NCBI RefSeq assembly: GCF_030384885.1
Contig: NZ_CP128613.1
Origin: Escherichia coli
GTDB lineage: Bacteria > Pseudomonadota > Gammaproteobacteria > Enterobacterales > Enterobacteriaceae
DNA: 64,000 nucleotides
Direction: 5' to 3' (one strand)
Of this stretch, positions 10,263 through 34,292 are shown piece after piece; the first letter of the stretch is position 1; every line of letters begins with the position of its first letter. The position numbers were made by a program, and so were the translations under genes. The notes under the pieces are model-generated. The model was not told the origin of the DNA, searched no databases, and was given only the letters and a program-made list of their open reading frames with translations.

Positions 10263-10400
10263 ATGAGCAAATTAAGTAGTGAAATGAAGGCCCTGACGAA
10301 GAAAGCAGGCGGCAGCTTCAAAACGGTAAATGACCGTATCCATATTACAAAACGGTTCAGTGAGCATTTACGCGAACTGAACATCCAGATCCGGCGGGTA
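10263..10400 (+). pseudogene. N-terminal fragment (~46 codons) of a second, different phage-type integrase.
   Basis: MSKLSSEMKALTKKAGGSFKTVNDRIHITKRFSEHLRELNIQIR resembles the N-terminal domain of an enterobacterial integrase family I remember. Similarity is lost at about 10400, where the P4-type fragment begins on the other strand. Confidence 0.35.
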
Positions 10401-10565
10401 TGCGCCAAGACTGACTCTGGATTCTTTTCCGTTGAAACGATATTTGAGATACCAGATGCGTGAACCGCCCGGATTGACGAGCAGATACAGACCGTGAGAG
10501 TCGGAGAGTTTTACCGGACGGGAAGAGGTTTTTAACTTGCGGATTTTAGAATCGTTTAAAGACAT
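10395..10565 (-). pseudogene. P4-type tyrosine integrase, N-terminal 57-codon fragment.
   Basis: MSLNDSKIRKLKTSSRPVKLSDSHGLYLLVNPGGSRIWYLKYRFNGKESRVSLGAYP is the classic DUF4102/P4-integrase N terminus. It is adjacent to the tRNA-Asn 3' end and transcribed away from it. The rest of the gene is absent. Confidence 0.7.
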
Positions 10566-10726
10566 TTGGGGGTCACTCCAGAATCGAACCAAACTGACCC
10601 CAGATCTGACCACCAAATTATCCCGATGCGGAGAGAAAACCAGATACGCACCGGGGAGGATTTTCACGCTAACTTACTGAACCGTAAACAAATAGAGATG
10701 TACAGATAAGCATGAAAACTTGAATT

Positions 10727-10802
10727 TGGCTCCTCTGACTGGACTCGAACCAGTGACATACGGATTAACAGTCCGCCGTTCTACCGACTGAACTACAGAG
10801 GA
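10727..10802 (-). tRNA. asnT: tRNA-Asn (anticodon GUU).
   Basis: The reverse complement reads TCCTCTGTAGTTCAGTCGGTAGAACGGCGGACTGTTAATCCGTATGTCACTGGTTCGAGTCCAGTCAGAGGAGCCA. It lies between mtfA and yeeJ. Confidence 0.95.
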
Positions 10803-10902: not shown

Positions 10903-11700
10903 TTAATGAACATTCGTCGCCGAAAACGAGTCTGTATCATTAGCGTGATGCAGTCTCTGCAAAGGATCTTGTTGATAAAATTGGCAGAAACGTTGCCACA
11001 ATGAAGGGAAACGAGGAGCAAAAAGCTCAGGGGCGCTAAAGAAATATTCAGAAAGTACGGCAAAACACTCAGCAGGATCACTGGCAGCATAAGCATCGAT
11101 GCTCGCCGCATTCTCACCGACTAATTCGATCTCTTCCTGAATGTTGTTCATTGCGGCATGAAGATCGTGTTCCCAGCCAGCAACCTCACGCAACGGAATA
11201 AAGGGAACTCCGCTGGCGCGATCGCCGTTACGGGTGTCCAGCTTATGAGCGACTTCATGAATAATCAGGTTAAAACCAGAAGCATCAAACGAATCTTGTA
11301 TATCCAACCAGTTCAAAACGATTGGCCCTTGCTGCCAGCTCTGACCTGACTGAACAATACGTTGGTTATGCACTAAACCGATATCGTCTTCCCACTCATC
11401 ATCGACTACAAATGGCGCAGGGTAAATTAAGACTTCATGAAAACCATCCAGCCATTCTAGCCCTAACTCCAGAACGGGCAGGCAAAATAGAAGGGCTATC
11501 CGGCAGCTTCTTAATGAATCCAGCTCAAAGCCCTGTAAGGGAACAAGCCGTTTTTGCTGTAAAAAACGTTCGGCAAGAGTGACTAATTTGCTTTGTTCCT
11601 GTTCTGTCAGGCACGTTAAAAGGGGAATCGATAGTGCTTCCTGCCAGGGAAGGGCAGTTTGATGTGCTGATTCTTGTACTTTCCAGGGCCACTTAATCAT
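10903..11700 (-). CDS. mtfA: Mlc titration factor A (glucose-induced peptidase-like regulator).
   Basis: [23 protein letters not shown]... recognised as MtfA/YeeI. HEVAH zinc-peptidase motif present. Confidence 0.9.
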
Positions 11701-11793
11701 CGTTTTGCTCGCAAACTCGTCACTTGAACAAAATTGCACGGACAGGGACTGTTAAAATGCCAAATTTCCTGGCATCATGGCAACCATCTGAAC

Positions 11794-11883
11794 GGAGAGA
11801 TGCCGGAGCGGCTGAACGGACCGGTCTCGAAAACCGGAGTAGGGGCAACTCTACCGGGGGTTCAAATCCCCCTCTCTCCGCCA
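11794..11883 (+). tRNA. serU: tRNA-Ser (anticodon CGA), 90 nt with long variable arm and encoded CCA.
   Basis: GGAGAGATGCCGGAGCGGCTGAACGGACCGGTCTCGAAAACCGGAGTAGGGGCAACTCTACCGGGGGTTCAAATCCCCCTCTCTCCGCCA. The anticodon loop is CT-CGA-AA. Confidence 0.95.
11870..11883 (+). repeat. attL-type copy of the island-flanking direct repeat (3' end of serU).
   Basis: CCCTCTCTCCGCCA occurs identically at 34279-34292. Confidence 0.65.
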
Positions 11884-12161
11884 ATCATTCAACAAAATCA
11901 ATCACTTACAAAGCGTTTTTGATTTTGTCATGCATAAATCCCTGCATTAAAATTCCTTTCGCTCGCTCGATTTTTCTTACTACTGATGCTGTTTTTTACC
12001 ATTTTGCTGCGCGTCGGGCATCCACTTTTATGCTCTCGAGTTCACACTCTTAACAACAACTTAGCCATTCCCCCGTTTCTAATGACAAAACAGTTGAACT
12101 TCAATTGTTCCAAACGGATCCTGTGAAGATATATCAAAGGAAATGGATTGTTGGAGGATGG

Positions 12162-13007
12162 ATGAAAAGAAGTGAAATCAGGAAAGCACTGGAAGCATGG
12201 TTTGATGTAGAACGCTATGAGGCGATAGAGAAACTCACCTTACAGCAGTTTTATGTTGAGGTTGAGCGGCGCATCTTGGCTTACAGAATGTTGTTGAGCC
12301 GGAAAACCATACCTACCTTTAACCGATTAATGCTGGATGATTACCGCAACAAGATCCTCAGCGGTGAAATCTTTTTCAGTGGTGATACTGCCACCATTGG
12401 ACATGAGCTTGCCAGAACCTATGCGGTAAACCCTACGACACGAAGCCATGCGCAATTTTATGCGAAAACCCTGTCATTAACCGAAGCCACGCCTGAACTC
12501 TCTGGGTTAAGCCAGTCTGAATTTCTGTCCGAGTATCTGAAAGAGACATCCCTTAATAATCTTTCACGCATTACTGTCGATATTCATCTGGAAGAAGCAT
12601 CAACCGAAGAGATCATTGAACATCTGAAAGTGCTGCTCCCCCAATGGAAGAGACAGCTCAAGATGAAGTCTCCAGCTCCAAGAGAGTATCGTTTTGGTAA
12701 AAGCACATTCAGAAAAATCATTGAATATCGTCTTATCCCGATGATGGACCTGATCTTCTGGGGAGAAGATAATGGCATTAAAATCCCGCTTTCACTGATT
12801 TCTTCGTTGCTTCACGAGGACAGTGACAACGATCGTGATGAAGGAATGCTCAAGGCTACAGATTACCCGTTAGCAATGGCTTTTCTGACTGACGCGAGCT
12901 ATCTGAAATCGCTTGAAGATTACATGATGGAAAACAACCACTTGAGAGACTCCCCGGTTGAAAAGCATGTAGAAGACGACAGGAATAAGAAAAAAGAAGC
13001 CAAGTAA
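12162..13007 (+). CDS. Hypothetical protein (281 aa), the first island gene after serU.
   Basis: Long ORF with GGAGGA 5-6 nt upstream of ATG 12162. No family recognised. Confidence 0.45.
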   Translation: MKRSEIRKALEAWFDVERYEAIEKLTLQQFYVEVERRILAYRMLLSRKTIPTFNRLMLDDYRNKILSGEIFFSGDTATIGHELARTYAVNPTTRSHAQFYAKTLSLTEATPELSGLSQSEFLSEYLKETSLNNLSRITVDIHLEEASTEEIIEHLKVLLPQWKRQLKMKSPAPREYRFGKSTFRKIIEYRLIPMMDLIFWGEDNGIKIPLSLISSLLHEDSDNDRDEGMLKATDYPLAMAFLTDASYLKSLEDYMMENNHLRDSPVEKHVEDDRNKKKEAK

Positions 13008-13213
13008 AAAGGGTTACGTTCGCTCCGTGCGAACGTGATCGCATCCAGTGTTAACCGTTATCTTTCCATTCGCTTCCCTTCGACATTTTCAAAAAAAACT
13101 TCTTTGAACGTCCCTAAATTGTCATAAGCAAAATCGCTATCATTGTTCACGTCGAAACAACATAGAGAAAACAAAATCTCATAGAGATTACTTACAATAA
13201 TAGAGGACAGACA

Positions 13214-13432
13214 ATGAAAGAAAATATTGAAACCAGCGTAAAACGATTTATCCGCGTTCCTGATGTTTTAAATCGGGTGGGATTCAGTCGCACGACCTTA
13301 TATGAGCGTATTAAGGAAGGAAACTTTCCAGACAGAGTAAAAATAGGTCCGAGGTGTGTCGCTTTTGTTGAAAGTGAGATTGATGAATGGATTGAAGCAA
13401 CTATTCGGAACTCACGCCAGAACGCTGCATAA
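13214..13432 (+). CDS. alpA: AlpA-family transcriptional regulator / excisionase-like HTH protein.
   Basis: RFIRVPDVLNRVGFSRTTLYERIKEGNFPDRVKIGPRCVAFVESEIDEWI is the typical AlpA/phage-Xis MerR-like HTH signature. Confidence 0.8.
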   Translation: MKENIETSVKRFIRVPDVLNRVGFSRTTLYERIKEGNFPDRVKIGPRCVAFVESEIDEWIEATIRNSRQNAA

Positions 13433-13501
13433 AAACAGAAACAAGATCTCGTGTCGAACAGGTAACTGTTAGCACAGGGCATCTTTTTACCCTTAACAAT
13501 A

Positions 13502-13804
13502 ATGGAGAAGATTATGAAGATTGAACTTATTACGACAAAACAGTTTATTGAACAAGCCGAATGTTATTTCAGGAACTATATGGACGGATTGCGGAGGAAT
13601 GCACCAGATGATTTTTATTATTTTCTCAACAATAAATACAATATGAATGACATTATGGAAAGTATCATTAAAAAAACACGGTATCATTTTTATGATGACA
13701 CCGAAGAAGGCAAAAGGAATCGGATTTATGGAGAAGTAAGCCACAGTAAGGTAAAGCAACACCTTCATCAGCTTTGGATTGTCTATAAGTGTGTATATCG
13801 CTAA
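13502..13804 (+). CDS. Hypothetical small protein (100 aa).
   Basis: ORF only. AT-rich, same strand as alpA. Confidence 0.35.
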   Translation: MEKIMKIELITTKQFIEQAECYFRNYMDGLRRNAPDDFYYFLNNKYNMNDIMESIIKKTRYHFYDDTEEGKRNRIYGEVSHSKVKQHLHQLWIVYKCVYR

Positions 13805-13847
13805 TACTACAGCATTTTATTTTAATATTAACCAAAAGGAAAAGCCA

Positions 13848-14144
13848 ATGAATACATTTAAAAATAAAAATACTGAAATCTTTTATGTTGTGTCCTTGCA
13901 TATCTACGCAGAGCTTTTTAACTCAAAGGATAAAACGACCAGTAATATGATTATAACGCATGTAATGGATTATGAGTTTGTCTGTAGGCTAATCGATCTG
14001 GCGATGAGGAATGCTGAGAAGCATCTTCTGAAAAAAGCATGGAAAAAAAACGCTGCTGAAAAACTGTCTGAGGTGGATTTTAAAGGGGTTAAGCAGGCAT
14101 TAGCCAAAATGCATTATACGGTTCTGGCGGAATCAATATGTTGA
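13848..14144 (+). CDS. Hypothetical small protein (98 aa).
   Basis: ORF with AAAGGAAAAG upstream of ATG 13848. It is followed by the hairpin CAGCCCC-TTCTT-GGGGCTG (14162-14180). Confidence 0.35.
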   Translation: MNTFKNKNTEIFYVVSLHIYAELFNSKDKTTSNMIITHVMDYEFVCRLIDLAMRNAEKHLLKKAWKKNAAEKLSEVDFKGVKQALAKMHYTVLAESIC

Positions 14145-14216
14145 TATGTTCTGACGTCTATCAGCCCCTTCTTGGGGCTGATAATAAATCTTATTTATCT
14201 ATCCAAGGAGCAAAAA

Positions 14217-14459
14217 ATGATTGATGAATTTCATGTGATGTATATGTATAAAAAAATCCAAGCAGAAGCCGCAACCACTGACATCAAAACACTTGAACAG
14301 CTTTTGAAAAAGTTCAGGAGCGTGGTTAACGAACGTCGTGAAGAATACTATCAGGAGATTGGTGAGAAAAAAGCGCGTAAGTTGAAAATGAAAAGAGCAC
14401 AAAGATTACTTGAGAAAATGGTATGTGACCGGGTTTCGCCAGAAGATCTCATTGACTGA
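14217..14459 (+). CDS. Hypothetical small charged/coiled-coil protein (80 aa).
   Basis: ORF with AAGGAG 7 nt upstream of ATG 14217. Confidence 0.4.
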   Translation: MIDEFHVMYMYKKIQAEAATTDIKTLEQLLKKFRSVVNERREEYYQEIGEKKARKLKMKRAQRLLEKMVCDRVSPEDLID

Positions 14460-14840
14460 TAAGTGTTCAACCAAAATTTTTTAGAATGTAGTATTACGAC
14501 CAATCGCAATAACATGTGGCATTTATGTATTCAGAAATCTGCTGATATGGAGGTCAACAGTTGTCTCGTGCATCTGCAACCCCCGTGGGATAATGGTGGG
14601 TGTTAACATCTGATTATCAAGAGAATGAGCATTCCCGAAGAAAACATAGAGTCTTTAAACGCGGTTTCGTTTGGTCATTGATGAAGATCTTCACGGGTAT
14701 GGCAGCCTATTTGTTTGTGAAAGAAAACATTATTTTTCAAATGGTTAGTGTAAATGATGATAACACGTCATGTGATCATAACTTATTGATCTTCTAGTTT
14801 TTTTGTGCATAATCCATAATATGAGTACTTAGTGGAACTT

Positions 14841-16682
14841 ATGATGGATTTTTTATATCAGGAATTAGCAAAAGCAGGGATAGCACTTTCTGTCAAAGAG
14901 CTTTTCACTCGCGTGGTATCTGCATGGGATAAAAAAAATTTAAGTGGGAAGCAACTTGTTAGAGAGTTGACTGGTTCAGAGGTATATCTGAACTATCTTG
15001 AGAAACATGTAGCAAGAGTGGTCCGACTAAGAACGATCCATAGTGCTGATTATGATATTCTGCTGACTAATTTATATCATCCATTAGGTATCACATCTTT
15101 ATCTCCCGGTGCAACTGAACATAAAGTCAATGACGGCTTCTATATAGAAAATCAACATATTACTAATATCATAGGAATAGCAGGGCAAGGGAAAAGTACT
15201 ATTTTAAGAAAACTGTTCATAGAACAAATAAAGAATGGAACAAAAATACCATTTTTTATTGAATTACGTAGAACTGGAAATGATGGGATCATTAAATCTC
15301 TTGAAAATACATTAATCAATCTTGGATTATACCCGACGTCCCAAGCAATTGATGAATTGTTATTTAGTAATAAAATATCTTTAATGTTAGATGGATTTGA
15401 TGAGGTCAACTCAAAGCAAAAAGATATTTTACTAAGTGAGATATTGATGCTAAACGTAAAATATGCATTGCAAGTAATAGTTACGTCGAGACCGGGTACA
15501 ACTGTTTGCAATGAACCATCAATTGTTAATTATAAAGTCGAAAAACTTAAAGAAAAAGACATACTGGCAATTATAGAAAAACTCAATACTAACAATGGAG
15601 TTATAGACAAAGAACAATTGCCGAAAATAAAAGATACAATTAAAAATAACAAAAATCTTGTTTCTGTGATGACTTCACCTATTCTGGTAACGCTTTTTCA
15701 TGTCTGTTATCCATTCATGGATATTATCCCCAATAATACAGTAGAATTTTATTCAAATCTGTTTATGACATTATATCTTCGACATGACAAAGTTAAAAAC
15801 TTTGACCGCGAAAAATCTTCCTCTTTAAGTCATAATGAAGCATATGACTGTTTCTGTACATTATGTTTTTACTCAATTTATACGAATAATCATGAATTTA
15901 CAGAGCAGTCACTAAATGAATATACAGAAAAATCAATGAAGTTAAAGGGACGGTTTGGTGAATGCAAAGCGGAGTCATTAGCTCAGGATTTTATTAATGT
16001 AACTTGTTTAATTCAGCGAGAAGGCTTTAATAAATATATCTTTATTCATAAATCGATTCAAGAGTATCATGCAGCAGAATTTATAAAAAATATATCATCA
16101 GATCAGAAAAATAAATTTTATAGTTTTCTTGTTGAAGATATTAAAAAAAATGAATTACGATTTTCTAATGTTATAGTATTCCTTAAAGAAATAGATGTCA
16201 TAGATTGTGCTAAATTCTTAATTATTCCACTGTGCGAATATTTTGGCGTTTCAAAATGGAATGCTTTGACCCCATTGGAATACAAGGATTTATTACGTAC
16301 ATTTTTCTCCGATACCTACATTCATTTATTTAATGACATTAATGATAAAGATATAATGGGGTTCAGTTCATTATCAGGGGTTAGTGGCTGGATGCAATTA
16401 TTAGATATCAGCGGCAATAATGATTTATATACGCCTGTGTTTGAAGTGTTAATAGATGAATCATTGTCAAGTGCGAATTTTAAAGATGTTGTAACCAGTC
16501 AAGATCGGCAAATGGTAAAAGTTTCATTTATGAAGGCAATAATACAATTAGGGATTGAAGACAAAATAGTTGAAGTGTTTATCAAAAATATTAAGAAAAT
16601 ACATAACGAAGTATATTGTGAAGCCATTAATAAAGTAAATAACGAGGATGTTAGTATTAAGGAGTTCTTTGATCTGATTTAA
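14841..16682 (+). CDS. NACHT-type STAND P-loop NTPase (bacterial NLR-like; candidate antiphage sensor).
   Basis: Walker A is IIGIAGQGKSTILRKL. Walker B is ISLMLDGFDEV. The NACHT-typical VIVTSRPG follows about 30 aa later. A C-terminal region of about 300 aa has no recognisable domain. The gene is very AT-rich. Confidence 0.7.
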   Translation: MMDFLYQELAKAGIALSVKELFTRVVSAWDKKNLSGKQLVRELTGSEVYLNYLEKHVARVVRLRTIHSADYDILLTNLYHPLGITSLSPGATEHKVNDGFYIENQHITNIIGIAGQGKSTILRKLFIEQIKNGTKIPFFIELRRTGNDGIIKSLENTLINLGLYPTSQAIDELLFSNKISLMLDGFDEVNSKQKDILLSEILMLNVKYALQVIVTSRPGTTVCNEPSIVNYKVEKLKEKDILAIIEKLNTNNGVIDKEQLPKIKDTIKNNKNLVSVMTSPILVTLFHVCYPFMDIIPNNTVEFYSNLFMTLYLRHDKVKNFDREKSSSLSHNEAYDCFCTLCFYSIYTNNHEFTEQSLNEYTEKSMKLKGRFGECKAESLAQDFINVTCLIQREGFNKYIFIHKSIQEYHAAEFIKNISSDQKNKFYSFLVEDIKKNELRFSNVIVFLKEIDVIDCAKFLIIPLCEYFGVSKWNALTPLEYKDLLRTFFSDTYIHLFNDINDKDIMGFSSLSGVSGWMQLLDISGNNDLYTPVFEVLIDESLSSANFKDVVTSQDRQMVKVSFMKAIIQLGIEDKIVEVFIKNIKKIHNEVYCEAINKVNNEDVSIKEFFDLI

Positions 16683-16893
16683 TATTTGAAATATGTTTTA
16701 ATTAAGTTGATCTGTTTTTATCTGGTTAACTATACAGAAATATCAAGGCACTATTACTTGGCAACAACCCATATAAAAAGGTATGTCCGTAATAAGATTT
16801 GAAAGAGTATTAATAGATTAATATGTATAATATTATTTTGTAACGAGGCTGACATAGTGAGAACAGGCAACCTCGGATCGTATACATAAAATT

Positions 16894-17298
16894 TTAGATG
16901 GCAAAGTCTTCCAGTGTCTTACCAGCTTCGATAGCAGCAGCGATTGCTTTAGGAGTACGGCCCTGACCCGTCCAAGTCTGCTCATTACCGTTTTCATCTG
17001 TATATTTGTATTTAGCAGGACGAGGAGCACGAGTTGATTTGGTTTTAGGCTGGGATGAACCAACTGAAGCGAGTAGTTCTGTAGGATCGATACCGTCTTC
17101 TAATAATTTCTGGCGGAAGGCTTCAAGTTTAGCCTGACGTTCTTCTTGTTCTTTACGGGCTGAATTTTCTTCCTCACGGCGATCTTCAACGATTGTGGTG
17201 AGTTTTTCCAGCATCTCTTCCAGAGTTGCCAGATCTGTTTCACGAGCCTGTGCGCGAAGTGTACGAATATTGTTCAGTGCCTTAAGAGCTTCACTCAT
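16894..17298 (-). CDS. H-NS family nucleoid-associated protein (island-encoded H-NS paralogue).
   Basis: [20 protein letters not shown]... forms the N-terminal coiled coil. The C terminus (...[36 protein letters not shown]) contains the H-NS DNA-binding TWTGQGRTP motif. Confidence 0.9.
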
Positions 17299-17454
17299 AG
17301 TATGTCATCCGGTGTTTTAAAATGGGCGATTAATAAAAATAATGCTTACGGTGCTGTTGGAAAAGTCAAAAAAACAGTCAGTAAATAATATAGTAAACAT
17401 TATCGTTTAAGCAATCTAATACATCTCATTTCACACGAATAGCATAGGGTCGTT

Positions 17455-17934
17455 TTACAGAGATATTTTCCTGCGCTTGTGGCTTGATGGTTCAAACTCT
17501 GACGAGATACGAGATAGTTGCTCAAGACTCTGTTCAATTGAACGCTGGAACTCCATAGCGGCTTCTGTACGCTGTTTTATGACCAAGGCAACTATTTCTT
17601 CATCAGTCTTTTCTGAAATAGCCTTACGGTATAACACGCGTTCGTTAAATAAATCGAGATTACCAGTTGATCTCGCTGATGTGTTAGCTTTTGAACTGCT
17701 GATAGGATTTAACTCGTCAATAAAGTATTCAATAAGAGATCCTCTCTTTTTTTCAAGTCTGCGAAGTTCGGTATGTGCAGACTTAAATTTTTGAGCCTTA
17801 ACCAATGGAATGTCATCGGAACGCAGTTTGCGATATTCATTTCTGTATTCTTCTATAGAAATATGATTTTTTAGTTCTTTGACTGTATTTACGTATTCGA
17901 TTAAATCACTGTTGTCTGTTTTTACTTTTCTCAT
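17455..17934 (-). CDS. Hypothetical charged, probably coiled-coil protein (159 aa).
   Basis: ORF only. The octamer repeat array lies 64 bp upstream of its start. Confidence 0.4.
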   Translation of the reverse strand: MRKVKTDNSDLIEYVNTVKELKNHISIEEYRNEYRKLRSDDIPLVKAQKFKSAHTELRRLEKKRGSLIEYFIDELNPISSSKANTSARSTGNLDLFNERVLYRKAISEKTDEEIVALVIKQRTEAAMEFQRSIEQSLEQLSRISSEFEPSSHKRRKISL

Positions 17935-17997
17935 AAGAATACCTCGTTAATAAATGATGGATATATTTATATTACGAGATATGGTGTTAGTGTCAAA

Positions 17998-18045
17998 TTA
18001 GCTCTTTAGCTCTTTAGCTCTTTAGCTCTTTAGCTCTTTAGCTCT
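17998..18045. repeat. Perfect tandem array, 6 x 8 bp (TTAGCTCT).
   Basis: Read directly: TTAGCTCT repeated six times without mismatch, between the RepL-like gene stop (18127) and the 159-aa gene start (17934). Confidence 0.95.
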
Positions 18046-18126
18046 GTTTCTCTCTTGGTAAGAAAATCCCTTTAGTGTAATAGGAGGTTATTACGGAGAT
18101 ATTTTTGCCTGTTTTTCCGCTGGTAA

Positions 18127-18684
18127 TTAATTTTTGTTATTCACTGTTTTCTTTTTGTCCTTCAAGTAATAAGTTTTCATGAAAGTTAAACGATCACCAT
18201 TAAACATATAGTCTGGATTAATAAAATAATAGTTCTGTATCATGGTCTCAGCAATAAATTTCTTGTCAGCAAGTTCTTTCATCCCTTTGAAATATGTCGT
18301 TCTTGATATTTTTACAATCTCTTGATCAACAATATCGAATGACATTAATATCGTATCTGTATCTTTATTGTCTCTAATAGCAAGATACAGTATCTTAAAT
18401 ACTTTCTTACCTGATGAGGATAAACCCTCAATAGCTGATACGCCATCCACATAAAGCTTCACGAACTGTGTCTTGTCTACTTCCATTGACTGAAAGAAAC
18501 CACCATGCCCAACCTGTTCTCCTGTATTTTCATTTACTACGGCTAAGCGGTCTTTTCCTGTTGTGATACGTCTGATACCTGTTTTTGTATGTATATTTGT
18601 ATCATTAAGGAATGGGTTTTTTACATGGCGAGGTAGACCTCTTCTTGATTTCTTTACTTCCGTTTGTATCTTATTTTCTATCAT
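18127..18684 (-). CDS. RepL-like / winged-helix DNA-binding protein (possible replication or maintenance protein).
   Basis: The pattern FVKLYVDGVSAIEGLSSSGKKVFKILYLAIR ... ISRTTYFKGMKELADKKFI ... YFINPDYMFNGD resembles the RepL-family layout I remember (F.K.Y...L..LS....KV...L, a wHTH, then INP....G). This is remembered similarity only. Confidence 0.4.
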   Translation of the reverse strand: MIENKIQTEVKKSRRGLPRHVKNPFLNDTNIHTKTGIRRITTGKDRLAVVNENTGEQVGHGGFFQSMEVDKTQFVKLYVDGVSAIEGLSSSGKKVFKILYLAIRDNKDTDTILMSFDIVDQEIVKISRTTYFKGMKELADKKFIAETMIQNYYFINPDYMFNGDRLTFMKTYYLKDKKKTVNNKN

Positions 18685-19095
18685 GGTACTTACTCCTTTA
18701 TTTTTTTAGTTATACATTTAAGTAAATACTATATTTTGCGTGCAAGTCAATACTTAAAGTTTATATTTTTTAAAATAACTAACACTTGATGTTTTTACGT
18801 ATAAAACTTGTAGTGCTACAGAATATATACAAATAACACTTTATTATTTTTATTTGAGAATAGTTATCAACTTAAGTACCGGGATTCGGGACTTTAACTC
18901 CCGAGAGTGCGTACTTTGTTTTAAGCTATAGCTGGCTTGAGAGCAGTTTTCTTCTTCATTATTCAAATAGCGAAGCTTTGGATGACATTTTAAAGAATAT
19001 AATATTGGAAATAGTTCTTCTTTTTAGTTGATTGGTGCCTTATCAAAATGGCACCAGTGGTGTTATCTGTGTTATTTTTCCTACTATGTTATTAC

Positions 19096-19143
19096 AGCGA
19101 AGTGATTGTTGTATACAATCACGAACCGCTGCTACTATCGGGA
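19096..19143. repeat. Copy A of a ~46-48-bp repeat carrying an inverted repeat (GTGATTGT...ACAATCAC).
   Basis: AGCGAAGTGATTGTTGTATACAATCACGAACCGCTGCTACTATCGGGA. It matches copy B at most positions. Confidence 0.7.
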
Positions 19144-19233
19144 CTGCTTGATTAATTTTACTTTAACTTTATATGCGTCTACGACGCGATCTTTTTTGGA
19201 TAAATCCAATATTAACAGGGGCAAGCCCTGTTC

Positions 19234-19279
19234 AGCAGAGTGATTGTTCGCAACAATCACGAAGTGCTGCTATCAAGGA
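19234..19279. repeat. Copy B of the same repeat (GTGATTGTT-CGC-AACAATCAC hairpin or palindrome).
   Basis: AGCAGAGTGATTGTTCGCAACAATCACGAAGTGCTGCTATCAAGGA. Confidence 0.7.
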
Positions 19280-19602
19280 TATAGTTTTCCTATACGTTTA
19301 AGAGCAAATGCTATATGTCTAAAGGGAAAAACTATGTTTAAACATAGGATCTAAATTCAGCATCATGAGGAAAAGAGATCAAACAATGATCGAGTACTTT
19401 TCTTTTTATTTAAAAAACAGGAGATGAATAAAATAAAAATATCAGCGTCAGGGCGTAGCCGTGCGTAAGCACAGAGATAAAGATCTTTTCAATAAGAAGT
19501 TTAATAATCAGTAGTGAAATCATAAATAAAATAAAAATATATTTGATTTTTACGCCTGCGATAGAGTATTAAACAGTAATAAAATAATAAAAGGAAAATA
19601 TA

Positions 19603-19872
19603 ATGAACAATACCAAAATGATCACTCTCTTCCATCCACATGACAAAACACCATTTATAATCTGTATTGTAAACAAAGTAGAAGATACAGACCACGGATT
19701 GAAATTAACCCTTGAAAACGGCAACAATATTTGTGTCAATAATTATAGTCATTATCTGTTATCAGAGTCTGTAAGTCGTTGCGATAAACACAGGTTAAAA
19801 AATATTTATATTCGCTTGGTTTCAGAACTCACGCAGATGAGTGAAAAAACTATAAATTCGCAAATGTTATAA
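19603..19872 (+). CDS. Hypothetical protein (89 aa).
   Basis: ORF with AAAGGAAAA upstream. No family recognised. Confidence 0.35.
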   Translation: MNNTKMITLFHPHDKTPFIICIVNKVEDTDHGLKLTLENGNNICVNNYSHYLLSESVSRCDKHRLKNIYIRLVSELTQMSEKTINSQML

Positions 19873-19950
19873 AATATCTATAAAGACATAATAAATATTT
19901 TTGATATTATGATTAGTTGCATGGTATTAAATAAAAACAGGAAAAATATC

Positions 19951-20355
19951 ATGCTAAAAATAAAAACAAAGATCTATATACCTACAACTTTAACAGGAAA
20001 CATGGATAAACACTATATCCCTGTTTTAGAGGATTTAAGAAAAGCGATATACAGCGACAGAATGTTATCAAGGCTTGCAGATAGCGGCAATATTGTTATC
20101 CATAGTTCAGTTGGGTATCCGGTTGCTAAATACAAAAATACGGGTATTAGCATAGGTATAGAACCATTGAATCCAATGATAAGACAAAATCTGACTCTTG
20201 GATATATTATGGTTGTCAGAAACGGAAAAGCATCACAGGAGATTAATGGTTTACTTAACAGGTCATTGCCAAAAGCAATAAGCACTTTTAAGGATCACAT
20301 CAATGAATATGAAGCAGTAAAAAGTAAAATGCGACAACAAACTATGATCTGGTAA
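19951..20355 (+). CDS. Hypothetical protein (134 aa).
   Basis: ORF. ATG 19951 is preceded by ACAGGAAAAA. Confidence 0.35.
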   Translation: MLKIKTKIYIPTTLTGNMDKHYIPVLEDLRKAIYSDRMLSRLADSGNIVIHSSVGYPVAKYKNTGISIGIEPLNPMIRQNLTLGYIMVVRNGKASQEINGLLNRSLPKAISTFKDHINEYEAVKSKMRQQTMIW

Positions 20356-20385
20356 AATATTTAGTCTGATAACTACAGGAGAAGG

Positions 20386-21432
20386 ATGAGCAATGGAAGG
20401 TAAGTTAATTTTTGTTCCGATGCAATACTACGGTTTCAATCCAATTACGATGAAACCGCTGCCGTTCCATTGCTATCCATCCAGAACGTCATAGCCAATA
20501 CCGATCCGTTCTTTCTTCTCCGGTTCTTCCACCATACCGTTCTGATTGAAGAAGGAACAACGCTGGCAAGTATCTTTCTGGCAATAGAACCATGGAAGGC
20601 TTTGTTAGCAGCTTATCTGGACAGAGATGTTGGTGCTTATATAGATGAGGTAAGAAAACCGTCCGGGCCAACGGCATGGGATATTGAATGGATCGGAATT
20701 GACCGTCGAAGTTCGGTTTATCGCGCTTACAAGCGTCAGGATATGGAAGAAGGGGAGGATTTTTCGACCTATTTTAATCGCGAGCGCTTCCCGACTGATG
20801 AGCTTGACATAGAAAGTAGCTGTGATGCTTCCGGCTTTATCAAAGGAGATAAAGAACGCTGGAGTATCAGCGGCGATATTCAACAAATTAAAAATCTTCC
20901 TGTAATCCTCTATAGCAAACAGACATTAATGACTTCACCGAAAGACGGTTTGCTGAAGAAAAACGTATCGGGTGTGAAGAGTTCCAAGCACAGTTGCTTT
21001 GTTTATGGCGATACCTCGTTTTCTTTTAGAGAGGTTATGGAAGCCATCTTCATTAGTAGGCTGTTCTTCTATGCACCAAAAGACGCAGCCAGCAGCCTTG
21101 ATGAGCTGAAAGCGAGTCTGGCTGAACTGGAAGAAGAACGTGCTGAAAGCACAAATACGGAGTCGATCGGCAATGAAACAGGTGAAGAACCTACCATCGT
21201 CGTAGCCGACGGTGCTTTTGATTCGCTCGCTGCTCACATGGAGTCTGAAAAGCGGAGTGGCAATCCATTAAGAAGTTGTGCCAGCAGGAAGGAGGGCTGC
21301 CCATACGTATTGGCAACATCAAAATGGCTGAGCCTCCAGCGTTATAGCTATTTTAAGAAAAGAAATGATGTAAATATGCATCTGGTTTTTCTTTATAATG
21401 TAAGGATGTCCGATGAAACATCAGCATCGTGA
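20386..21432 (+). pseudogene. Hypothetical gene interrupted by an in-frame TAA at codon 6 (or re-initiating at TTG 20470).
   Basis: ATG 20386 has a strong RBS (AGGAGAAGG) and is in the same frame as the 320-aa ORF starting at 20470. Only one stop (20401-20403) separates them. This gene is noticeably less AT-rich than its neighbours. Confidence 0.4.
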
Positions 21433-21640
21433 ATGTTATCTGGTTAATAATTTTCTTATGTAATATTATCTATGCCATCTGGCTATGTTTTCAATTGTTT
21501 TAGTTCTCGACAACTGTTTTTATATCCAGTATGATTTTACTCGTATCCGGCAGAATATTTTTAGATGCTGTTTCATGAACTCCGGTTGAAAGGTTTATTC
21601 TCTACTTTTGGGAATAATAGTTAAAATGGAGATAAGTGTA

Positions 21641-23077
21641 ATGACGTTTAGTAATGAAATTGAAGTTTTCATAAAAGATTTTGTTAAAGATCTTGAAAAT
21701 GATTGTGCTGCTATTTTTTCTGGCGCAGGAATGTCTAAAAGTCAAGGTTATGTTGATTGGAAAGAATTACTTAGCGATATAGCAGAAGAACTTAGTTTAG
21801 ACATTAATAAAGAAGACGATCTAATATCGCTTGCTCAATTTCATGTTAATGAAAAGAAAGGGGCTACAAAACTCACAAGGAAGATAATCGAAGAGTTTTC
21901 TGAGCAAGCCGAGCCATCAGAGGTTCATAATATAATTGCTCGTTTACCGATTAAGACATTTTGGACAACAAACTATGACACTTTAATTGAAGATAGTCTG
22001 CGGAAAGTTTACAAAATTGCAGATGTAAAAAGAAACATAGATGATTTAAATACAACACGACCTAAGCGAGACGCGATAGTATATAAAATGCATGGTGATA
22101 TTTCGTCCCCATCCAAGGCTATTTTATATAAAGAGCAGTATGAAAAATACTACAGAACACACGCTTCATTTATCACCGCACTTAGCGGAGATTTAATATC
22201 AAAAACCTTTCTATTCATAGGGTTTAGTTTTACCGACCCAAATCTGGATTACATTTTGAGTCGTTTGTATACTCATTCTGGGGACAAGAGGACACACTAT
22301 TGCTTTATGAAGAATGAGGCTAATAATTCCCTAGATGATGAAGAAACAGTAAATTATAAGATCAGAAAACAAAAACTGCGAATCGATGATCTCAAGAGAT
22401 TTGGTATACAAGTATTATTAATAGATGAATATTCTGACATCCCTAAAATTCTAGCTAAGATAGAGCAATCATTTAAAAAGAAAACGATATTTATTTCTGG
22501 TAGTGCAGAAAAATATGGGGATCTTGAAAGACCTAAAGCATTAGATTTTATTCACACATTAGCATATGAGATTATAAAGAATAATTATAGGATAGTGAAT
22601 GGATTTGGATGGGGCGTCGGAAGTTCTGTGATAAATGGTGCGTTGGATGCAATTTATAGTAGGCCAGATAAATTATCAGAAGAACAGCTCATTGTTAGAC
22701 CATTTCCACAAACTGTCAGTAAGGGGAAAGATATTCAAGAACTTTGGGAGGAGTATAGACAGAGAATGATTCCTCTTGGTGGTATTGCATTGTTTATTTT
22801 TGGAAATAAACAAGAGGAAAATAATGATATAGTTAATGCTAGGGGAGTATTTAGAGAGTTTGAGATTGCTGTTCAACATGGCCTTGTACCAATTCCTTTA
22901 CCCAATACCGGGTATATGTCTAAATATATATTTGAACAAATATCACAAGATCCTAAGAAATATTATGGAAGTAATGAATGGATATATAATGATTTGTCTG
23001 AGCTTACTGAAAAAGATTTTTCGGTAAAAAAAACAATAGAAGTTGTAATAAAAATCATAAACAAACTGAATAAATAA
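21641..23077 (+). CDS. thsA: Thoeris ThsA: N-terminal SIR2-like NADase domain plus C-terminal SLOG-like ligand-binding domain.
   Basis: SIR2-type motifs are IFSGAGMSKSQGYVDWKELL, FWTTNYDTLIE, IVYKMHGDIS and LFIGFSFTDPNLDYI. The C-terminal half has IFISGSAEKYG...NGFGWGVGSSVINGAL (SLOG/LOG-like). At about 478 aa it is close to my memory of the Bacillus ThsA size (roughly 475 aa). Confidence 0.85.
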   Translation: MTFSNEIEVFIKDFVKDLENDCAAIFSGAGMSKSQGYVDWKELLSDIAEELSLDINKEDDLISLAQFHVNEKKGATKLTRKIIEEFSEQAEPSEVHNIIARLPIKTFWTTNYDTLIEDSLRKVYKIADVKRNIDDLNTTRPKRDAIVYKMHGDISSPSKAILYKEQYEKYYRTHASFITALSGDLISKTFLFIGFSFTDPNLDYILSRLYTHSGDKRTHYCFMKNEANNSLDDEETVNYKIRKQKLRIDDLKRFGIQVLLIDEYSDIPKILAKIEQSFKKKTIFISGSAEKYGDLERPKALDFIHTLAYEIIKNNYRIVNGFGWGVGSSVINGALDAIYSRPDKLSEEQLIVRPFPQTVSKGKDIQELWEEYRQRMIPLGGIALFIFGNKQEENNDIVNARGVFREFEIAVQHGLVPIPLPNTGYMSKYIFEQISQDPKKYYGSNEWIYNDLSELTEKDFSVKKTIEVVIKIINKLNK

Positions 23078-23093
23078 TATATTAGGTGAAGTT

Positions 23094-23705
23094 ATGGCTC
23101 ATGAAACATTCATATCATATAAATATAGTGAAGCACAGGATTTAAGAGACAAAATTGTCAAGGCATTAGGAGATGACGCTGTTTACTATAAAGGGGAGAC
23201 ATCGGAGTCTCCTGATATAAGTAATACAACAGTAGATAATATAAAGAACAATCTTAAAAATATGATTTTCGGGACATCTGTTTTAATTGTTATTATTTCC
23301 CCGAATATGATTAAAAGTAAATGGATTGACTGGGAAATTGAATATGCATTGAAAGAATACAAGAGAGGAGGAACCACTTCCCGAACTAATGGCATTGTTG
23401 GTGTGATAATGAAGGTTAATAATAGCTATGACTGGTTAGTATCTTCTTCAATCAAGCCTGATGGATGTTCATCAAGAACTATTGATACAACTAAACTATA
23501 TGACATTATTAATAATAATAGGTTTAATTTAACTTCAGAAGATAAATATTGTTGCCCTGAGTGCAAATCATATGATCAATTGACTGGTTCTTATATTTCA
23601 TTGATAGAAGAAGACCGATTTTTAGCAGATGTATCTTCATACATTGAAAATGCCTATGAGAAATCTAAAAAATTAAGTTCCTACGATTTATATAAACAAA
23701 AATAG
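23094..23705 (+). CDS. thsB: Thoeris ThsB: TIR-domain protein.
   Basis: FISYKYSEAQDLRDKI... and ...SVLIVIISPNMIKSKWIDWEIEYAL give a TIR-like fold with the conserved Glu in WEIE. It lies 17 bp downstream of thsA on the same strand. Confidence 0.8.
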   Translation: MAHETFISYKYSEAQDLRDKIVKALGDDAVYYKGETSESPDISNTTVDNIKNNLKNMIFGTSVLIVIISPNMIKSKWIDWEIEYALKEYKRGGTTSRTNGIVGVIMKVNNSYDWLVSSSIKPDGCSSRTIDTTKLYDIINNNRFNLTSEDKYCCPECKSYDQLTGSYISLIEEDRFLADVSSYIENAYEKSKKLSSYDLYKQK

Positions 23706-26887: not shown

Positions 26888-28369
26888 TTAGTGTTTCTTA
26901 TGGCTCGGTGGACTCAGTTTTGGCGCGCTTCCTTGCCTCATGTGTTCTGGTGGCATTGAAGGTGTGAGATTTATGCTTCTATTAACTTCCGGCTGTTCCT
27001 GATTAGGACGGCTTGGTAAACGTTTGATTTCATCAGGTGTTAATTTATAGTCACCATTGTTAAATTTGGTACGTTTTTCAAACTCCGAGCGTGGAACATT
27101 GACACCCAGCACTTCATCATAGACATAGTTCTCTGCGATACGCTTATCATGGTCAGCATCAATGGTATCGGGTTTCCTTCTGGCCCATACAAATCTCTCT
27201 TTGAAGAAGCCCACCACAAGCAGTGTGAAACGCTTAAACAAACCATTTTGTCGTGGCTTAGTCTGTTTCCTACTTCTCATCGGAGCACGGTTTATCGCTC
27301 TGGTGTTTCGAGAAGAAGGGGTTTCCAGTTTAGTGGATGCAGTTGGTTCAGGAACAATCAGAACGGGAGATTTCTTCCCTGAAATACTTACTTTACTGAC
27401 CTTATTGGGATCACGGTAAGATTTTGCTGCTGGTCTTCTGCTTGTGGCGTGTGTCTTCATAACAGGCTGCTGTTCTACTGTTGCCGGGTAGTCAGGGATA
27501 ACGATTTCTTCGGGTTCAGCAAGATGTGTAATCGTAAAGCTTCTGACATCAACCACGATCTCCAGTGGTAGCTCACTGAATGTGGTGTAGACCTTTTTGG
27601 CCTCTTCAATTTGCTGATCGCGTTGAGCTTGTTCAGTAGCTCGCTGTTCCTGAGACTCGGTGTCATTCCATTTAGCACGATGAACACGCTGCATTGCCGG
27701 GCGGTTAGTTTCTGTTGCTTTGGCAAGCCAGAATGCTTTCTCTTCAGCGCTGAATGCTTCTTCTGCCTGAGCAAGGGCATCAGCACATTGCGTCCTGAGA
27801 GAACGGTGATCGATACGTTCTTCACTGCCTGCGGCTTCAAGGTAGCTGTTTGACATCGTGGCCCACGACTCACGCCATTGGATCATTATCTTCTTATCAT
27901 TCCAGCTTCTTTCTTTTTTACCGAAGCCTTCGGGACCAATGGTTTTCAGGGTTAACATGACGTGAGCATGGGGATTCTTACCATCTAAATCGTGGAATGC
28001 GATATCAGCTATCATTCCTTTCTCAACAAAGTTCTTCTGGCAGTATTCGGCAACCAATTTTTTCTTGTCATCATTACTGAGTTCTACGGGAATAGCGACA
28101 TCAAAATAACGGGCTGTTTGACCATTGTTCTGGCGTTCCACTCTTTCAACTTCATTCCATAGTGCTGAGGAGCTTTCAACAATATGAGCAGGTGCGGAAA
28201 CGGGCGCTAATATAATATGACCATGAAGATCTCTTCTGCGTCTGAAATCAAATGTTTCGCCAATGCGATTATCTATAATACGTGTACGGGCATGGTAGGC
28301 AGCTTTCGCAACGGAAGTCATGCCTTCGCTTCGTTTCACAATTTTAAAATCCAGATGAAAAATCGCCAT
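26888..28369 (-). CDS. mobA: MobA/MobL-family (MOBQ-type) relaxase.
   Basis: MAIFHLDFKIVKRSEGMTSVAKAAYHAR carries the catalytic Tyr region, cf. RSF1010 MobA MAIYHLTAK. ARYFDVAIPVELS and FHDLDGKNPHAHVMLT give the 3-His motif. Confidence 0.85.
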   Translation of the reverse strand: MAIFHLDFKIVKRSEGMTSVAKAAYHARTRIIDNRIGETFDFRRRRDLHGHIILAPVSAPAHIVESSSALWNEVERVERQNNGQTARYFDVAIPVELSNDDKKKLVAEYCQKNFVEKGMIADIAFHDLDGKNPHAHVMLTLKTIGPEGFGKKERSWNDKKIMIQWRESWATMSNSYLEAAGSEERIDHRSLRTQCADALAQAEEAFSAEEKAFWLAKATETNRPAMQRVHRAKWNDTESQEQRATEQAQRDQQIEEAKKVYTTFSELPLEIVVDVRSFTITHLAEPEEIVIPDYPATVEQQPVMKTHATSRRPAAKSYRDPNKVSKVSISGKKSPVLIVPEPTASTKLETPSSRNTRAINRAPMRSRKQTKPRQNGLFKRFTLLVVGFFKERFVWARRKPDTIDADHDKRIAENYVYDEVLGVNVPRSEFEKRTKFNNGDYKLTPDEIKRLPSRPNQEQPEVNRSINLTPSMPPEHMRQGSAPKLSPPSHKKH

Positions 28370-30270: not shown

Positions 30271-30275
30271 TGAAG

Positions 30276-30299
30276 AGGGCGTAAGCCCTTTTCTTTCTT
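30276..30299 (+). terminator. Weak or attenuating terminator hairpin between pilS and pilV.
   Basis: AGGGC-GTAA-GCCCT followed by TTTCTTTCTT. Confidence 0.45.
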
Positions 30300-30322
30300 A
30301 TTGCTAAAACAGGGAGATAATT

Positions 30323-34278: not shown

Positions 34279-34292
34279 CCCTCTCTCCGCCA
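34279..34292 (+). repeat. attR-type direct repeat of the serU 3' end.
   Basis: CCCTCTCTCCGCCA is identical to 11870-11883. It lies 165 bp upstream of the integrase start. Confidence 0.65.

Follow-up and report, generated by a model that had tools for sequence, protein, structure and literature searches.

The serU genomic island and its gene content

The window analysed here, a 64,000-nucleotide stretch of an Escherichia coli contig (NZ_CP128613.1), contains a 22.4 kb genomic island (11870–34292) at tRNA-Ser(cga) (11794–11883), bounded by a direct repeat of the 3' end of the tRNA-Ser gene (11870–11892 and 34279–34301). An Rfam scan of positions 11500–21500 found the tRNA alone. The island carries an integrase gene (32897–34114, minus strand), a MobA relaxase gene and a RepL-like gene, and a 22.5-kb serU island with H-NST and Hfp has already been described (PMC7074111). 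The initial annotation called this region rich in defence genes, and the island does contain a Thoeris system (ThsA, 21608–23077; ThsB, 23094–23705) and a PDC-S35 TIR protein (31967–32797, minus strand).

Two H-NS-family genes lie in the left part of the island. The first, hnsT (14217–14459, plus strand), encodes an 80-aa truncated H-NS with the oligomerisation domain only (Pfam Histone_HNS_N, E = 2.4e-11) and no C-terminal DNA-binding domain. The second, hfp/hnsB (16894–17298, minus strand), encodes a full-length H-NS paralogue of 134 aa (Histone_HNS_N, E = 5e-25; Histone_HNS, E = 3e-17). Between them is an intact open reading frame on the plus strand (14844–16682) that converges on hfp/hnsB, as had been noted before; scans for terminators and inverted repeats between the two convergent genes gave nothing convincing. 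Three start codons are in frame (GTG 14832, ATG 14841 and ATG 14844) and the stop codon is at 16680–16682, giving a product of 612 aa from ATG 14844 or 613 aa from ATG 14841. The GC content of the ORF is 30.5%, compared with ∼49–51% for the backbone, so that its description as extremely AT-rich is borne out; the region upstream of the ORF has 36% GC.

A megablast search with this gene against 5,426 complete E. coli genomes returned zero copies, and the same search in 'distant' mode recovered the plasmids carrying bNACHT12 and bNACHT02. A phage collection searched with the gene yielded no close copy. Close copies of the NACHT-bearing version of the island are present in Salmonella enterica and Klebsiella oxytoca, where the NACHT proteins are 98% identical to the one described here and belong to a cluster of 636 sequences. 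Purifying selection acts on the gene (dN/dS ∼0.09), with values of 0.08–0.09 against the Salmonella and K. oxytoca alleles. No positive selection was seen in the C-terminal SNaCT domain (see below) among these near-identical alleles (dN/dS 0.10–0.15).

The cassette between hnsT and hfp

The closest described relative of the island is that of uropathogenic strains (the UPEC serU, or H-NST/Hfp, island), which occupies the same tRNA-Ser serU site, has the same size of ∼22.4 kb, and shares a backbone that is ∼93–94% identical and includes DUF6387, AlpA, two small ORFs, hnsT, hfp, DUF4756 and the RepL-like gene. Homology to this NACHT-less island ends at 14468 and resumes at 16894, the stop codon of hfp; the NACHT gene is thus the cargo of a 2.4-kb cassette that exactly replaces the DNA separating hnsT from hfp. 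The backbone is matched in 678 complete E. coli genomes, and in every one of them the NACHT gene is missing from the hnsT-hfp slot; in one NACHT-less E. coli island examined the slot carries two unannotated ORFs of 138 and 249 aa.

The upstream part of the cassette (14469–14843, plus strand) contains a promoter-like site at 14786–14813 (TTGATC-16 nt-CATAAT), a match that is not above chance expectation, and a Shine-Dalgarno-like GTGGA at 14832–14836. Conservation of this stretch in Salmonella and K. oxytoca is 97%, and both promoter-like hexamers and the two adjacent ATGs are kept there. The downstream part (16683–16893, plus strand) runs to the point where homology to the UPEC island resumes. 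Across 32 loci from other species the slot after hnsT is empty in eight and holds diverse cargo in about 13; none of the cargo in these 32 species is a NACHT gene, and most of the ORFs have no Pfam or PADLOC match, while one matches PDC-S60 and two are ArsR/Csa3-like HTH proteins.

The NACHT module

GIAGQGKST, LMLDGFDEV and VTSRPG had been read from the sequence as NACHT signatures. All three are found at their assigned places, and a profile search agrees: Pfam NACHT (PF05729) matches aa 110–248 with 40.3 bits (E = 3.7e-10), above the curated gathering cutoff of 26.7. Counting residues from ATG 14844, as throughout, the Walker A motif is aa 111–119 (nt 15174–15200, with K117), Walker B is aa 180–188 (nt 15381–15407, with D183, D186 and E187), and VTSRPG is aa 213–218 (nt 15480–15497), its TSRPG motif carrying R216, the conserved Arg after the sensor strand. 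K117, R216, D183, D186 and E187 are invariant across 82 homologues, and K117 and R216 align with K115 and R214 of bNACHT11.

The AlphaFold2 model of the protein is confident (pLDDT 85.4, pTM 0.82), and a Foldseek search of the PDB with it returned the eukaryotic NLRs, namely NLRC4 (4kxf, E = 1.1e-12), NOD2 (5irm, 2.8e-11) and NLRP3 (∼1e-9 to 1e-10). The module, comprising the nucleotide-binding domain (NBD), helical domain and winged helix, spans aa ∼46–418 (14979–16097, plus strand) and has a predicted NLR-like fold; by profile score, motifs and predicted structure, the protein is a NACHT-module STAND NTPase. The likeness to NLRC4, NOD2 and NLRP3 is confined to the NBD-HD1-WHD fold (TM ∼0.5 normalised to the query) and sequence identity is only 14–18%; the LRR sensor and CARD/PYD effector of those proteins are absent, and a small SNaCT and an N-terminal extension of ∼45 aa are present instead. 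A sequence search of the PDB gave no match, and the bNACHT11 entry 9ORF was absent from both the sequence and the Foldseek results.

Relationship to bNACHT clade 14

The sensor region was originally described as unrecognised, but the architecture is that of clade 14, 'NACHT+SNaCT', of Kibby et al., in whose Table S1 bNACHT01, 02, 11 and 12 are filed under that heading. For comparison we used P0121 as the bNACHT01 reference, which is 609 aa long, as is WP_015632533.1, and agrees with the ∼400 aa of that protein shown in Table S2, WP_021519735.1 (on plasmid pEC012-4) as bNACHT12, and a bNACHT11-like protein that is 93% identical to bNACHT11 over the ∼400 aa printed in Table S2. The alignments to bNACHT12 and bNACHT01 span 100% of the length, with E = 1e-226 for the bNACHT01 cluster. 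Identity to bNACHT12 and bNACHT01 respectively is 61% and 58% overall, 70% and 66% in the NBD, 79% and 82% in the helical and winged-helix domains (HD/WHD), and 38% and 32% in the SNaCT. We place the protein in clade 14 by these pairwise identities and by best hits to references assigned in Table S1. The gene is very likely an allele of this characterised group of single-gene phage sensors, and the system type is not new; the initial proposal of a bacterial NLR-like defence protein is strengthened by this homology, which makes an antiphage sensor very probable.

The nearest of the tested relatives, bNACHT12 from E. coli HVH 41, has the same length of 612 aa and the same architecture, is likewise a single gene, and protects against T4, T6 and MS2 (Kibby et al., Table S2). 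It differs in its setting, an IncFII plasmid with IS elements alongside, as opposed to the hnsT-hfp interval of a chromosomal serU island; the two genes have unrelated regulatory DNA upstream, and nucleotide similarity begins at the start codon. Because the SNaCT is only 38% identical to that of bNACHT12, phage specificity is probably different. The clade-14 type member bNACHT01, from K. pneumoniae MGH 35, protects against T4, T5 and T6 and needs its Walker A residue K115 (Kibby et al.), which is K117 here. It too lacks an effector domain, its C-terminal tail reads …EFFDL compared with …EFFDLI, and it adjoins a CBASS operon on large Klebsiella plasmids. Table S2 gives bNACHT01 and bNACHT12 each as an operon of one gene, and expression of bNACHT01 was driven by the native promoter (Kibby et al.).

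The third characterised relative, bNACHT11 (WP_114260439.1; cryo-EM structure PDB 9ORF according to the preprint), is more distant, at ∼40% identity overall and ∼22% in the SNaCT, albeit with the same domain order and predicted SNaCT topology. D2, a hydrophobic C-terminal tail and hydrophobic residues at the equivalent interface positions are present in both, although the bNACHT11 SNaCT is 27 aa longer with an extra helix and its N-terminal motif is MDPIT rather than MDFLY. DnaJ is dispensable for T4 defence in the two clade-14 proteins examined for this, bNACHT11 and bNACHT12. For bNACHT04 and bNACHT22, clade-14 members with no annotated SNaCT, the 'Phage Defense' column of Table S2 names no phages.

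A scan of the protein against PADLOC-DB v2.0.0, which covers Avs/AVAST and other STAND systems, gave nothing at E ≤ 0.1. As controls, bNACHT01, bNACHT12 and close homologues of bNACHT02 and bNACHT11 also had no meaningful match, showing that the library has no clade-14 model and that its negative result is uninformative. An NCBIfam scan gave only a faint EruA match (13.7 bits against a cutoff of 1000).

The SNaCT domain

Some 300 C-terminal residues were at first thought to match no repeat type. The model does lack repeats, but aa ∼250–418 of this stretch belong to the NACHT module, as its helical and winged-helix subdomains, and the separate C-terminal domain starts only at about aa 419/445 and runs to aa 612. 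We assign this part (aa ∼419–612; 16098–16679, plus strand) as the SNaCT (Short NACHT-associated C-terminal) sensor domain. Searched alone, aa 445–612 match bNACHT12 (E = 3e-32) and bNACHT01 (E = 1e-25) over their annotated SNaCT, and the region is modelled as a mixed alpha/beta fold. Mean column entropy across the 82 homologues is 2.90 bits in the SNaCT compared with 1.59–1.68 in the NACHT module (Welch t = −15.3, p ∼1e-43), and this much greater variability reproduces the published hallmark of clade 14 (Kibby et al.).

At the sequence level only the first 28 aa of the domain align with the bNACHT11 SNaCT (E = 8e-4 to 0.017). We compared the two as the order of predicted secondary-structure elements, model against model, and the order of helices and strands is the same as in the model of the bNACHT11-like protein. 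The experimentally defined ligand strand of bNACHT11 coincides with the equivalent predicted strand, which in the protein described here is aa 501–509 (nt 16344–16370). The bNACHT11 interface residues S518, I519, F522, I549 and I553 correspond to G506, F507, L510, F533 and I537; as the domains are barely alignable, this mapping rests on a gapped alignment and predicted secondary structure. In bNACHT11 the SNaCT binds at least five unrelated phage proteins, and a hydrophobic C-terminal tail (residues 633–639) docks into the neighbouring SNaCT (bioRxiv 10.1101/2024.12.17.629029). The corresponding tail here, KEFFDLI (nt 16659–16679), aligns with LKDILGF of the bNACHT11-like protein, and in its F609 column 59 of the 82 homologues have F and 19 have L.

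The N-terminal extension

Ahead of the NACHT module is an extension of ∼45–60 aa, considerably shorter than the ∼110 aa given originally. Its first 45 residues (MDFLYQELAKAGIAL...; 14844–14978, plus strand) are presumed to be the cell-death effector region, in a proline-less variant of the 'MDPIT/MEPIS' motif. No additional Pfam, PADLOC or NCBIfam domain was found in the protein, enzymatic domains included, and the earlier observation that it has no recognisable effector domain stands. The accompanying suggestion that the short N terminus is itself the effector agrees with findings for bNACHT11, of the same clade, the only protein in which this role has been demonstrated: its short extension starting "MD…" is a death effector that requires both D2 and P3, and N-terminal additions abolished its activity (bioRxiv 10.1101/2024.12.17.629029). 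BLASTP of aa 1–60 gives E = 9e-25 against bNACHT12 and 3e-9 against the bNACHT11-like protein. D2 is conserved in 56 of the 82 family members; position 3, which is F here, is P in 34. The P3 essential in bNACHT11 is also replaced by L in the functional bNACHT12 (MDLVF…), whose N terminus is of the same type, and is missing from the functional bNACHT01 (MDIIQ…). With two adjacent ATGs, the product could carry an extra N-terminal Met.

Genomic neighbourhoods of NACHT homologues

Homologues of the gene occur in five different neighbourhoods, among which no neighbour is conserved; these include a plasmid locus next to CBASS, sites among housekeeping genes in Citrobacter and Serratia, and a locus flanked by IS elements. 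Another clade-14 gene, bNACHT02, follows a plasmid hha-hns operon at a distance of 82 bp, in a topB-hha-hns-bNACHT02 arrangement seen on E. coli plasmids of 40–50 kb. We considered adjacency to H-NS genes as a family-wide rule and rejected it, since no such neighbour accompanies bNACHT01, the bNACHT11-like gene or the homologues in Citrobacter and Serratia.

Proposed mechanism and alternative explanations

By homology to bNACHT01, bNACHT12 and bNACHT11, we propose with good confidence that the protein acts as a stand-alone clade-14 antiphage sensor. In the uninfected cell it would probably stay monomeric and inactive, the usual resting state of STAND NTPases. The SNaCT would directly bind at least one small phage protein through an exposed beta-strand (∼aa 501–509) and a hydrophobic patch formed by F507, L510, F533 and I537. 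Ligand binding would then drive assembly of an ATP-dependent, wheel-like oligomer for which K117 of Walker A and R216 would be needed, and in which the hydrophobic tail (…EFFDLI) probably docks into the adjacent protomer. The oligomer would cluster the N-terminal extensions (MDFLY…), and these may act as a death effector at the inner membrane, leading to plasmolysis and abortive infection. No partner gene would be necessary. In bNACHT11, binding of phage proteins to the SNaCT triggers formation of an ATP-dependent heptamer, the C-terminal tail is required, and cells are killed by plasmolysis (bioRxiv 10.1101/2024.12.17.629029).

The low GC content of the ORF and its position among H-NS-family genes raise the possibility of transcriptional silencing under some conditions. 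A possible but less favoured elaboration, and one compatible with the sensor reading, is that a functional sensor is held under xenogeneic silencing by H-NS and Hfp acting on the AT-rich cassette and is freed by H-NST or by a phage or stress signal, with hnsT-[cargo]-hfp serving as a regulatory module for toxic cargo. The base composition of the ORF and its upstream region is consistent with this, as are the placement of the cassette exactly between the hnsT and hfp stop codons, the variable occupancy of the slot in other species, and the position of bNACHT02 behind hha-hns; moreover, H-NST is an antagonist of H-NS, with which Hfp forms heteromers (PMC7074111). Against it, the homologues cited above against a family-wide rule have no H-NS-family neighbour, bNACHT01 was protective under its native promoter in an hns+ E. 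coli host, and upstream DNA is also present in the remaining tested clones. The adjacency may be chance, given that mobile elements often bear H-NS paralogues together with AT-rich cargo, and most other genes occupying the slot carry no annotation linked to defence.

A role outside defence is improbable, for instance in addiction to or stabilisation of the island, as is the view of the gene as a decaying remnant. The island is mobile, to judge from its integrase, MobA relaxase and RepL-like gene, and a death effector could in principle stabilise such an element, but the ORF is intact and full length with every catalytic residue invariant, it is under purifying selection, its nearest characterised relatives are bona fide antiphage proteins, and most serU islands persist without it.

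The initial annotation also offered the alternative that the effector is supplied by a small ORF nearby (13502–14459), which would make a system of two components; this is extremely unlikely, as it has only proximity and shared orientation in its favour, and we rejected it on comparing the neighbourhoods of NACHT homologues with NACHT-less islands, because the three ORFs concerned (two conserved hypothetical ORFs of ∼96–100 and 98 aa, and H-NST, itself a truncated H-NS) are island backbone at 94% identity in the 678 NACHT-less E. coli genomes, and are absent beside the homologues in Citrobacter, Serratia and Klebsiella plasmids, and because the tested relatives are listed as one-gene operons.

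Implications for clade-14 systems and serU islands

The stand-alone sensor reading has a direct consequence for annotation, in that this gene and its counterparts in Salmonella enterica and Klebsiella oxytoca (98% identity) can be named as a clade-14 bNACHT antiphage sensor; PADLOC-DB v2.0.0 overlooks clade-14 genes, including the validated bNACHT01 and bNACHT12. The gene opens no long-standing problem, and what is mildly new is its divergent SNaCT and the fact that clade-14 genes are found more than once beside genes of the H-NS family. At only 32–38% identity to the tested alleles, the SNaCT is a reasonable extra data point on how this domain varies and on phage specificity. It is a rather doubtful extension that the hnsT-hfp gap is an exchangeable slot providing silencer and anti-silencer control of AT-rich, potentially self-toxic defence genes, that clade-14 genes may be recurrently recruited beside H-NS-family genes, and that the divergent SNaCT would recognise phage proteins unlike any mapped so far. 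The clean swap of the cassette between hnsT and hfp nonetheless suggests a small, testable question about the xenogeneic silencing of abortive-infection genes.

Identification of a clade 14 NACHT gene

The NACHT gene is one long plus-strand open reading frame (ORF) with in-frame starts at GTG 14832, ATG 14841 and ATG 14844 and a stop codon at 16680-16682; residues are numbered here from ATG 14844. All three motifs quoted in the initial annotation are found in the translation, with Walker A (GIAGQGKST) at aa 111-119, Walker B (LMLDGFDEV) at aa 180-188 and VTSRPG at aa 213-218. The NACHT assignment is upheld by a profile search, in which aa 110-248 score 40.3 bits (E = 3.7e-10) against Pfam NACHT (PF05729), above the gathering score of 26.7 bits. 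The GC content of the ORF is 30.5%, that of the surrounding island 37.7%, and that of the chromosomal backbone 49-51%.

A protein-collection search returned 167 relatives from Enterobacterales, Vibrionales, Aeromonas and Pseudoalteromonas, the best 120 of the 167 being mostly ~610-650 aa long. One cluster, whose representative (P0009) is 58% identical to the window protein at 100% coverage, includes P0121, which matches bNACHT01 (WP_015632533.1, K. pneumoniae MGH 35, 609 aa) over the stretch that Kibby et al. give in their Table S2. Among E. coli replicons, only plasmid pEC012-4 matches the gene over a long stretch of nucleotides (70% over 77% of the gene), and the product of its gene, WP_021519735.1, is bNACHT12. 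Kibby et al. report that bNACHT01 defends against T4, T5 and T6 and needs its Walker A lysine, K115; their Table S2 lists bNACHT12 with T4, T6 and MS2, and predicts a one-gene operon for each of the two. Their Table S1 assigns bNACHT01, 02, 11 and 12 to clade 14 (architecture 'NACHT+SNaCT'), which they describe as the sole bacterial NACHT clade in which no effector domain is fused, and as having a short C-terminal domain, SNaCT, that diversifies rapidly. Homology to the antiphage proteins bNACHT01 and bNACHT12 supports the core of the earlier reading, an NLR-like antiphage sensor; the sensor region that had been called unrecognised is the SNaCT domain of clade 14. The window protein belongs to a well-studied family, of which it is an uncharacterised allele.

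Searches of PADLOC-DB v2.0.0 with bNACHT01 and bNACHT12, both experimentally validated, and with close homologues of bNACHT02 and bNACHT11 gave no meaningful match, and pipelines built on that database will overlook clade 14 bNACHT genes.

The window gene differs from its Salmonella and K. oxytoca alleles by 40-42 synonymous and 13-16 non-synonymous substitutions (dN/dS 0.08-0.09). Low dN/dS, the full-length ORF and conservation of the promoter-like hexamers and of a double ATG at the start argue for a functional gene.

Domain organization and structure

The window protein was compared by domain with bNACHT12, bNACHT01 and a bNACHT11-like protein (93% identical to bNACHT11 across the ~400 aa of the latter printed in Table S2). 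The respective identities are 62%, 51% and 31% for aa 1-45; 70%, 66% and 50% for the nucleotide-binding part; 79%, 82% and 52% for the helical and winged-helix part; and 38%, 32% and 22% for SNaCT. Searched alone (aa 445-612), the SNaCT domain is clearly homologous to those of bNACHT12 (E = 3e-32) and bNACHT01 (E = 1e-25), and its similarity in sequence to SNaCT of the bNACHT11/02 subclade is marginal. Mean column entropy in an 82-sequence alignment is 2.90 bits for SNaCT versus 1.59-1.68 for the NACHT module (t = -15.3), reproducing the published clade 14 hallmark of a fast-diverging SNaCT.

An AlphaFold2 model of the window protein is confident (pLDDT 85.4, pTM 0.82), and in the PDB it best matches NLRC4, NOD2 and NLRP3; for the bNACHT11 structure, too, NLRC4 is listed among the leading structural matches (bioRxiv 10.1101/2024.12.17.629029). 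The 300 C-terminal residues previously left unassigned divide into the NACHT helical and winged-helix part (to ~aa 418) and a ~190-aa alpha/beta SNaCT. Relative to the Salmonella and K. oxytoca alleles, dS in SNaCT (16098-16679) is 0.21-0.22, ~2.6x that of the rest of the gene (0.08), and dN/dS there is low (0.10-0.12); the raised dS may reflect recombination in the sensor region. The divergent SNaCT of this allele is mildly interesting.

Genomic context in the serU island

The window backbone is Escherichia, its mtfA/tRNA-Ser/tRNA-Asn segment sharing ~97% identity with practically every complete E. coli genome. Repetition of the tRNA-Ser 3' end at 34279-34301 bounds an island of 22.4 kb, matching the published 22.5 kb serU island that encodes H-NST and Hfp (PMC7074111). 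It carries a complete type I Thoeris pair (21608-23705; ThsA SIR2-STALD, E = 9e-203; ThsB TIR, E = 1e-85), a PDC-S35/CAP12-PCTIR TIR-domain protein (31967-32797, minus strand), and DUF6387, AlpA, DUF4756 and RepL-like genes. A MobA/MobL relaxase, a PilS-type (type IV) pilin and a shufflon/PilV-like protein (26888-28369, minus strand, and 29713-31759), and an integrase at the end distal to the tRNA (32897-34114, minus strand) suggest a mobilisable element. Between the DUF4756 and RepL-like genes (17990-18053) lie ~7 tandem copies of the 8-bp unit TTAGCTCT, which could be an iteron-like or slippage-prone tract. Beside tRNA-Asn (10727-10802), where E. coli MCJCHV-1 has a full-length integrase, the window has no more than a 99-aa ORF (10368-10667, minus strand) similar to the N-terminal part of a P4-type integrase; it looks like a remnant of another island. 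A match to Rfam 'Plastid-psbl-rps4' antisense to tRNA-Ser (11829-11880, minus strand; 40.9 bits, below the gathering score of 68) almost certainly arises artefactually from the tRNA sequence.

The window stays collinear with the common UPEC island up to 9 bp past the stop codon of hnsT (14468), the truncated H-NS gene upstream, and becomes so again exactly at that of hfp (16894), the convergent H-NS paralogue gene. The slot holds a 2,425-bp NACHT cassette (14469-16893) in the window and 1,450 bp in the UPEC island (L015, 4280-5729), where two ORFs (138 and 249 aa) match nothing in Pfam or PADLOC; this is a clean cassette exchange between the two stop codons. At the megablast level the NACHT gene was found in none of 5,426 complete E. 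coli genomes, 678 of which match the flanking island backbone. The exact protein occurs in 15 public contigs, in the same context as in the window. Among 32 loci of other Enterobacterales species none has a NACHT gene after hnsT; the slot is empty (48-57 bp) in eight, and ~13 have diverse, mostly unannotated cargo of 0.7-3.9 kb that includes one PDC-S60-like protein and ArsR/Csa3-like HTH proteins.

The placement between H-NS-family genes is echoed by bNACHT02, also of clade 14, which on plasmid pISHS7_3 (NZ_CP092255.1; L056, 4548-7203) lies 82 bp 3' of the hha-hns operon in the order topB-hha-hns-NACHT. The hns and NACHT genes occur together in 16 E. coli records, nearly all if not all of them plasmids, and the hns part alone in ~420. 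This is a second, independent adjacency of a clade 14 gene to an H-NS-family gene.

The neighborhoods of the homologues are completely different from one another. bNACHT01 adjoins CBASS on Klebsiella plasmids, Citrobacter and Serratia homologues (63-70% identical) stand alone amid housekeeping genes, the bNACHT11-like gene has IS elements on both sides, and bNACHT12 is flanked by IS remnants on an IncFII plasmid. Only the alleles of Salmonella and K. oxytoca, 98% identical, have the window's context, because the whole island module is shared. It had been proposed that neighboring small ORFs (13502-14459, plus strand) might supply an effector. These are two conserved hypothetical ORFs and an 80-aa protein that matches in Pfam only the H-NS N-terminal oligomerisation domain and is thus H-NST, a known H-NS antagonist of the serU island (PMC7074111). 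All are present at ~94% identity in E. coli islands lacking the NACHT gene, so they belong to the island backbone and the proposal is not supported.

Proposed mechanism

In bNACHT11, SNaCT makes direct contact with at least five small, mutually unrelated phage proteins, binding them through beta-augmentation and a hydrophobic patch, which triggers formation of an ATP-dependent heptameric wheel; the C-terminal seven residues are essential and dock into the adjacent SNaCT, and the first ~45 residues are the effector, causing plasmolysis and cell death (Robbins et al., bioRxiv 10.1101/2024.12.17.629029). Its N terminus has the consensus MDPIT, in which D2 and P3 are essential and additions are not tolerated (same source); the literature also ties the N-terminal region to a Bell/HeLo-type 'MEPIS' membrane-targeting motif.

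By homology, the window protein most likely works in the same way. K117 and R216, the counterparts of bNACHT11 K115 and R214, are invariant across the 82-sequence family alignment and D2 is conserved. Position 3 is F, not P; bNACHT12, which is functional, has L there, and bNACHT01 (MDIIQ…) likewise lacks the proline. The tail reads …KEFFDLI, and 59 of 82 sequences have F in the F609 column. Interface residues S518, I519, F522, I549 and I553 of bNACHT11 align to G506, F507, L510, F533 and I537. Because SNaCT sequence similarity between the two subclades is weak, we also modelled the bNACHT11-like protein (pLDDT 85.0), and its SNaCT has helices and strands in the same order as in the window protein. 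The ligand strand of bNACHT11, as defined by experiment (518-519), lies within strand 516-520 predicted in this model, which in turn aligns to the window protein's predicted strand 501-509. The models support, albeit without proving, that the bNACHT11 mechanism may be transferred to the window protein.

The proline-less N-terminal motif and the ambiguity of the start codon are mildly interesting. Two adjacent ATGs (14841-14846) open the ORF, and the copies in Salmonella and K. oxytoca retain both. Family proteins begin with 'MD', so that ATG 14844 fits best as the start; the spacing of an SD-like GTGGA relative to ATG 14841 equals that in bNACHT01. The choice between the two could matter, since N-terminal additions inactivate bNACHT11.
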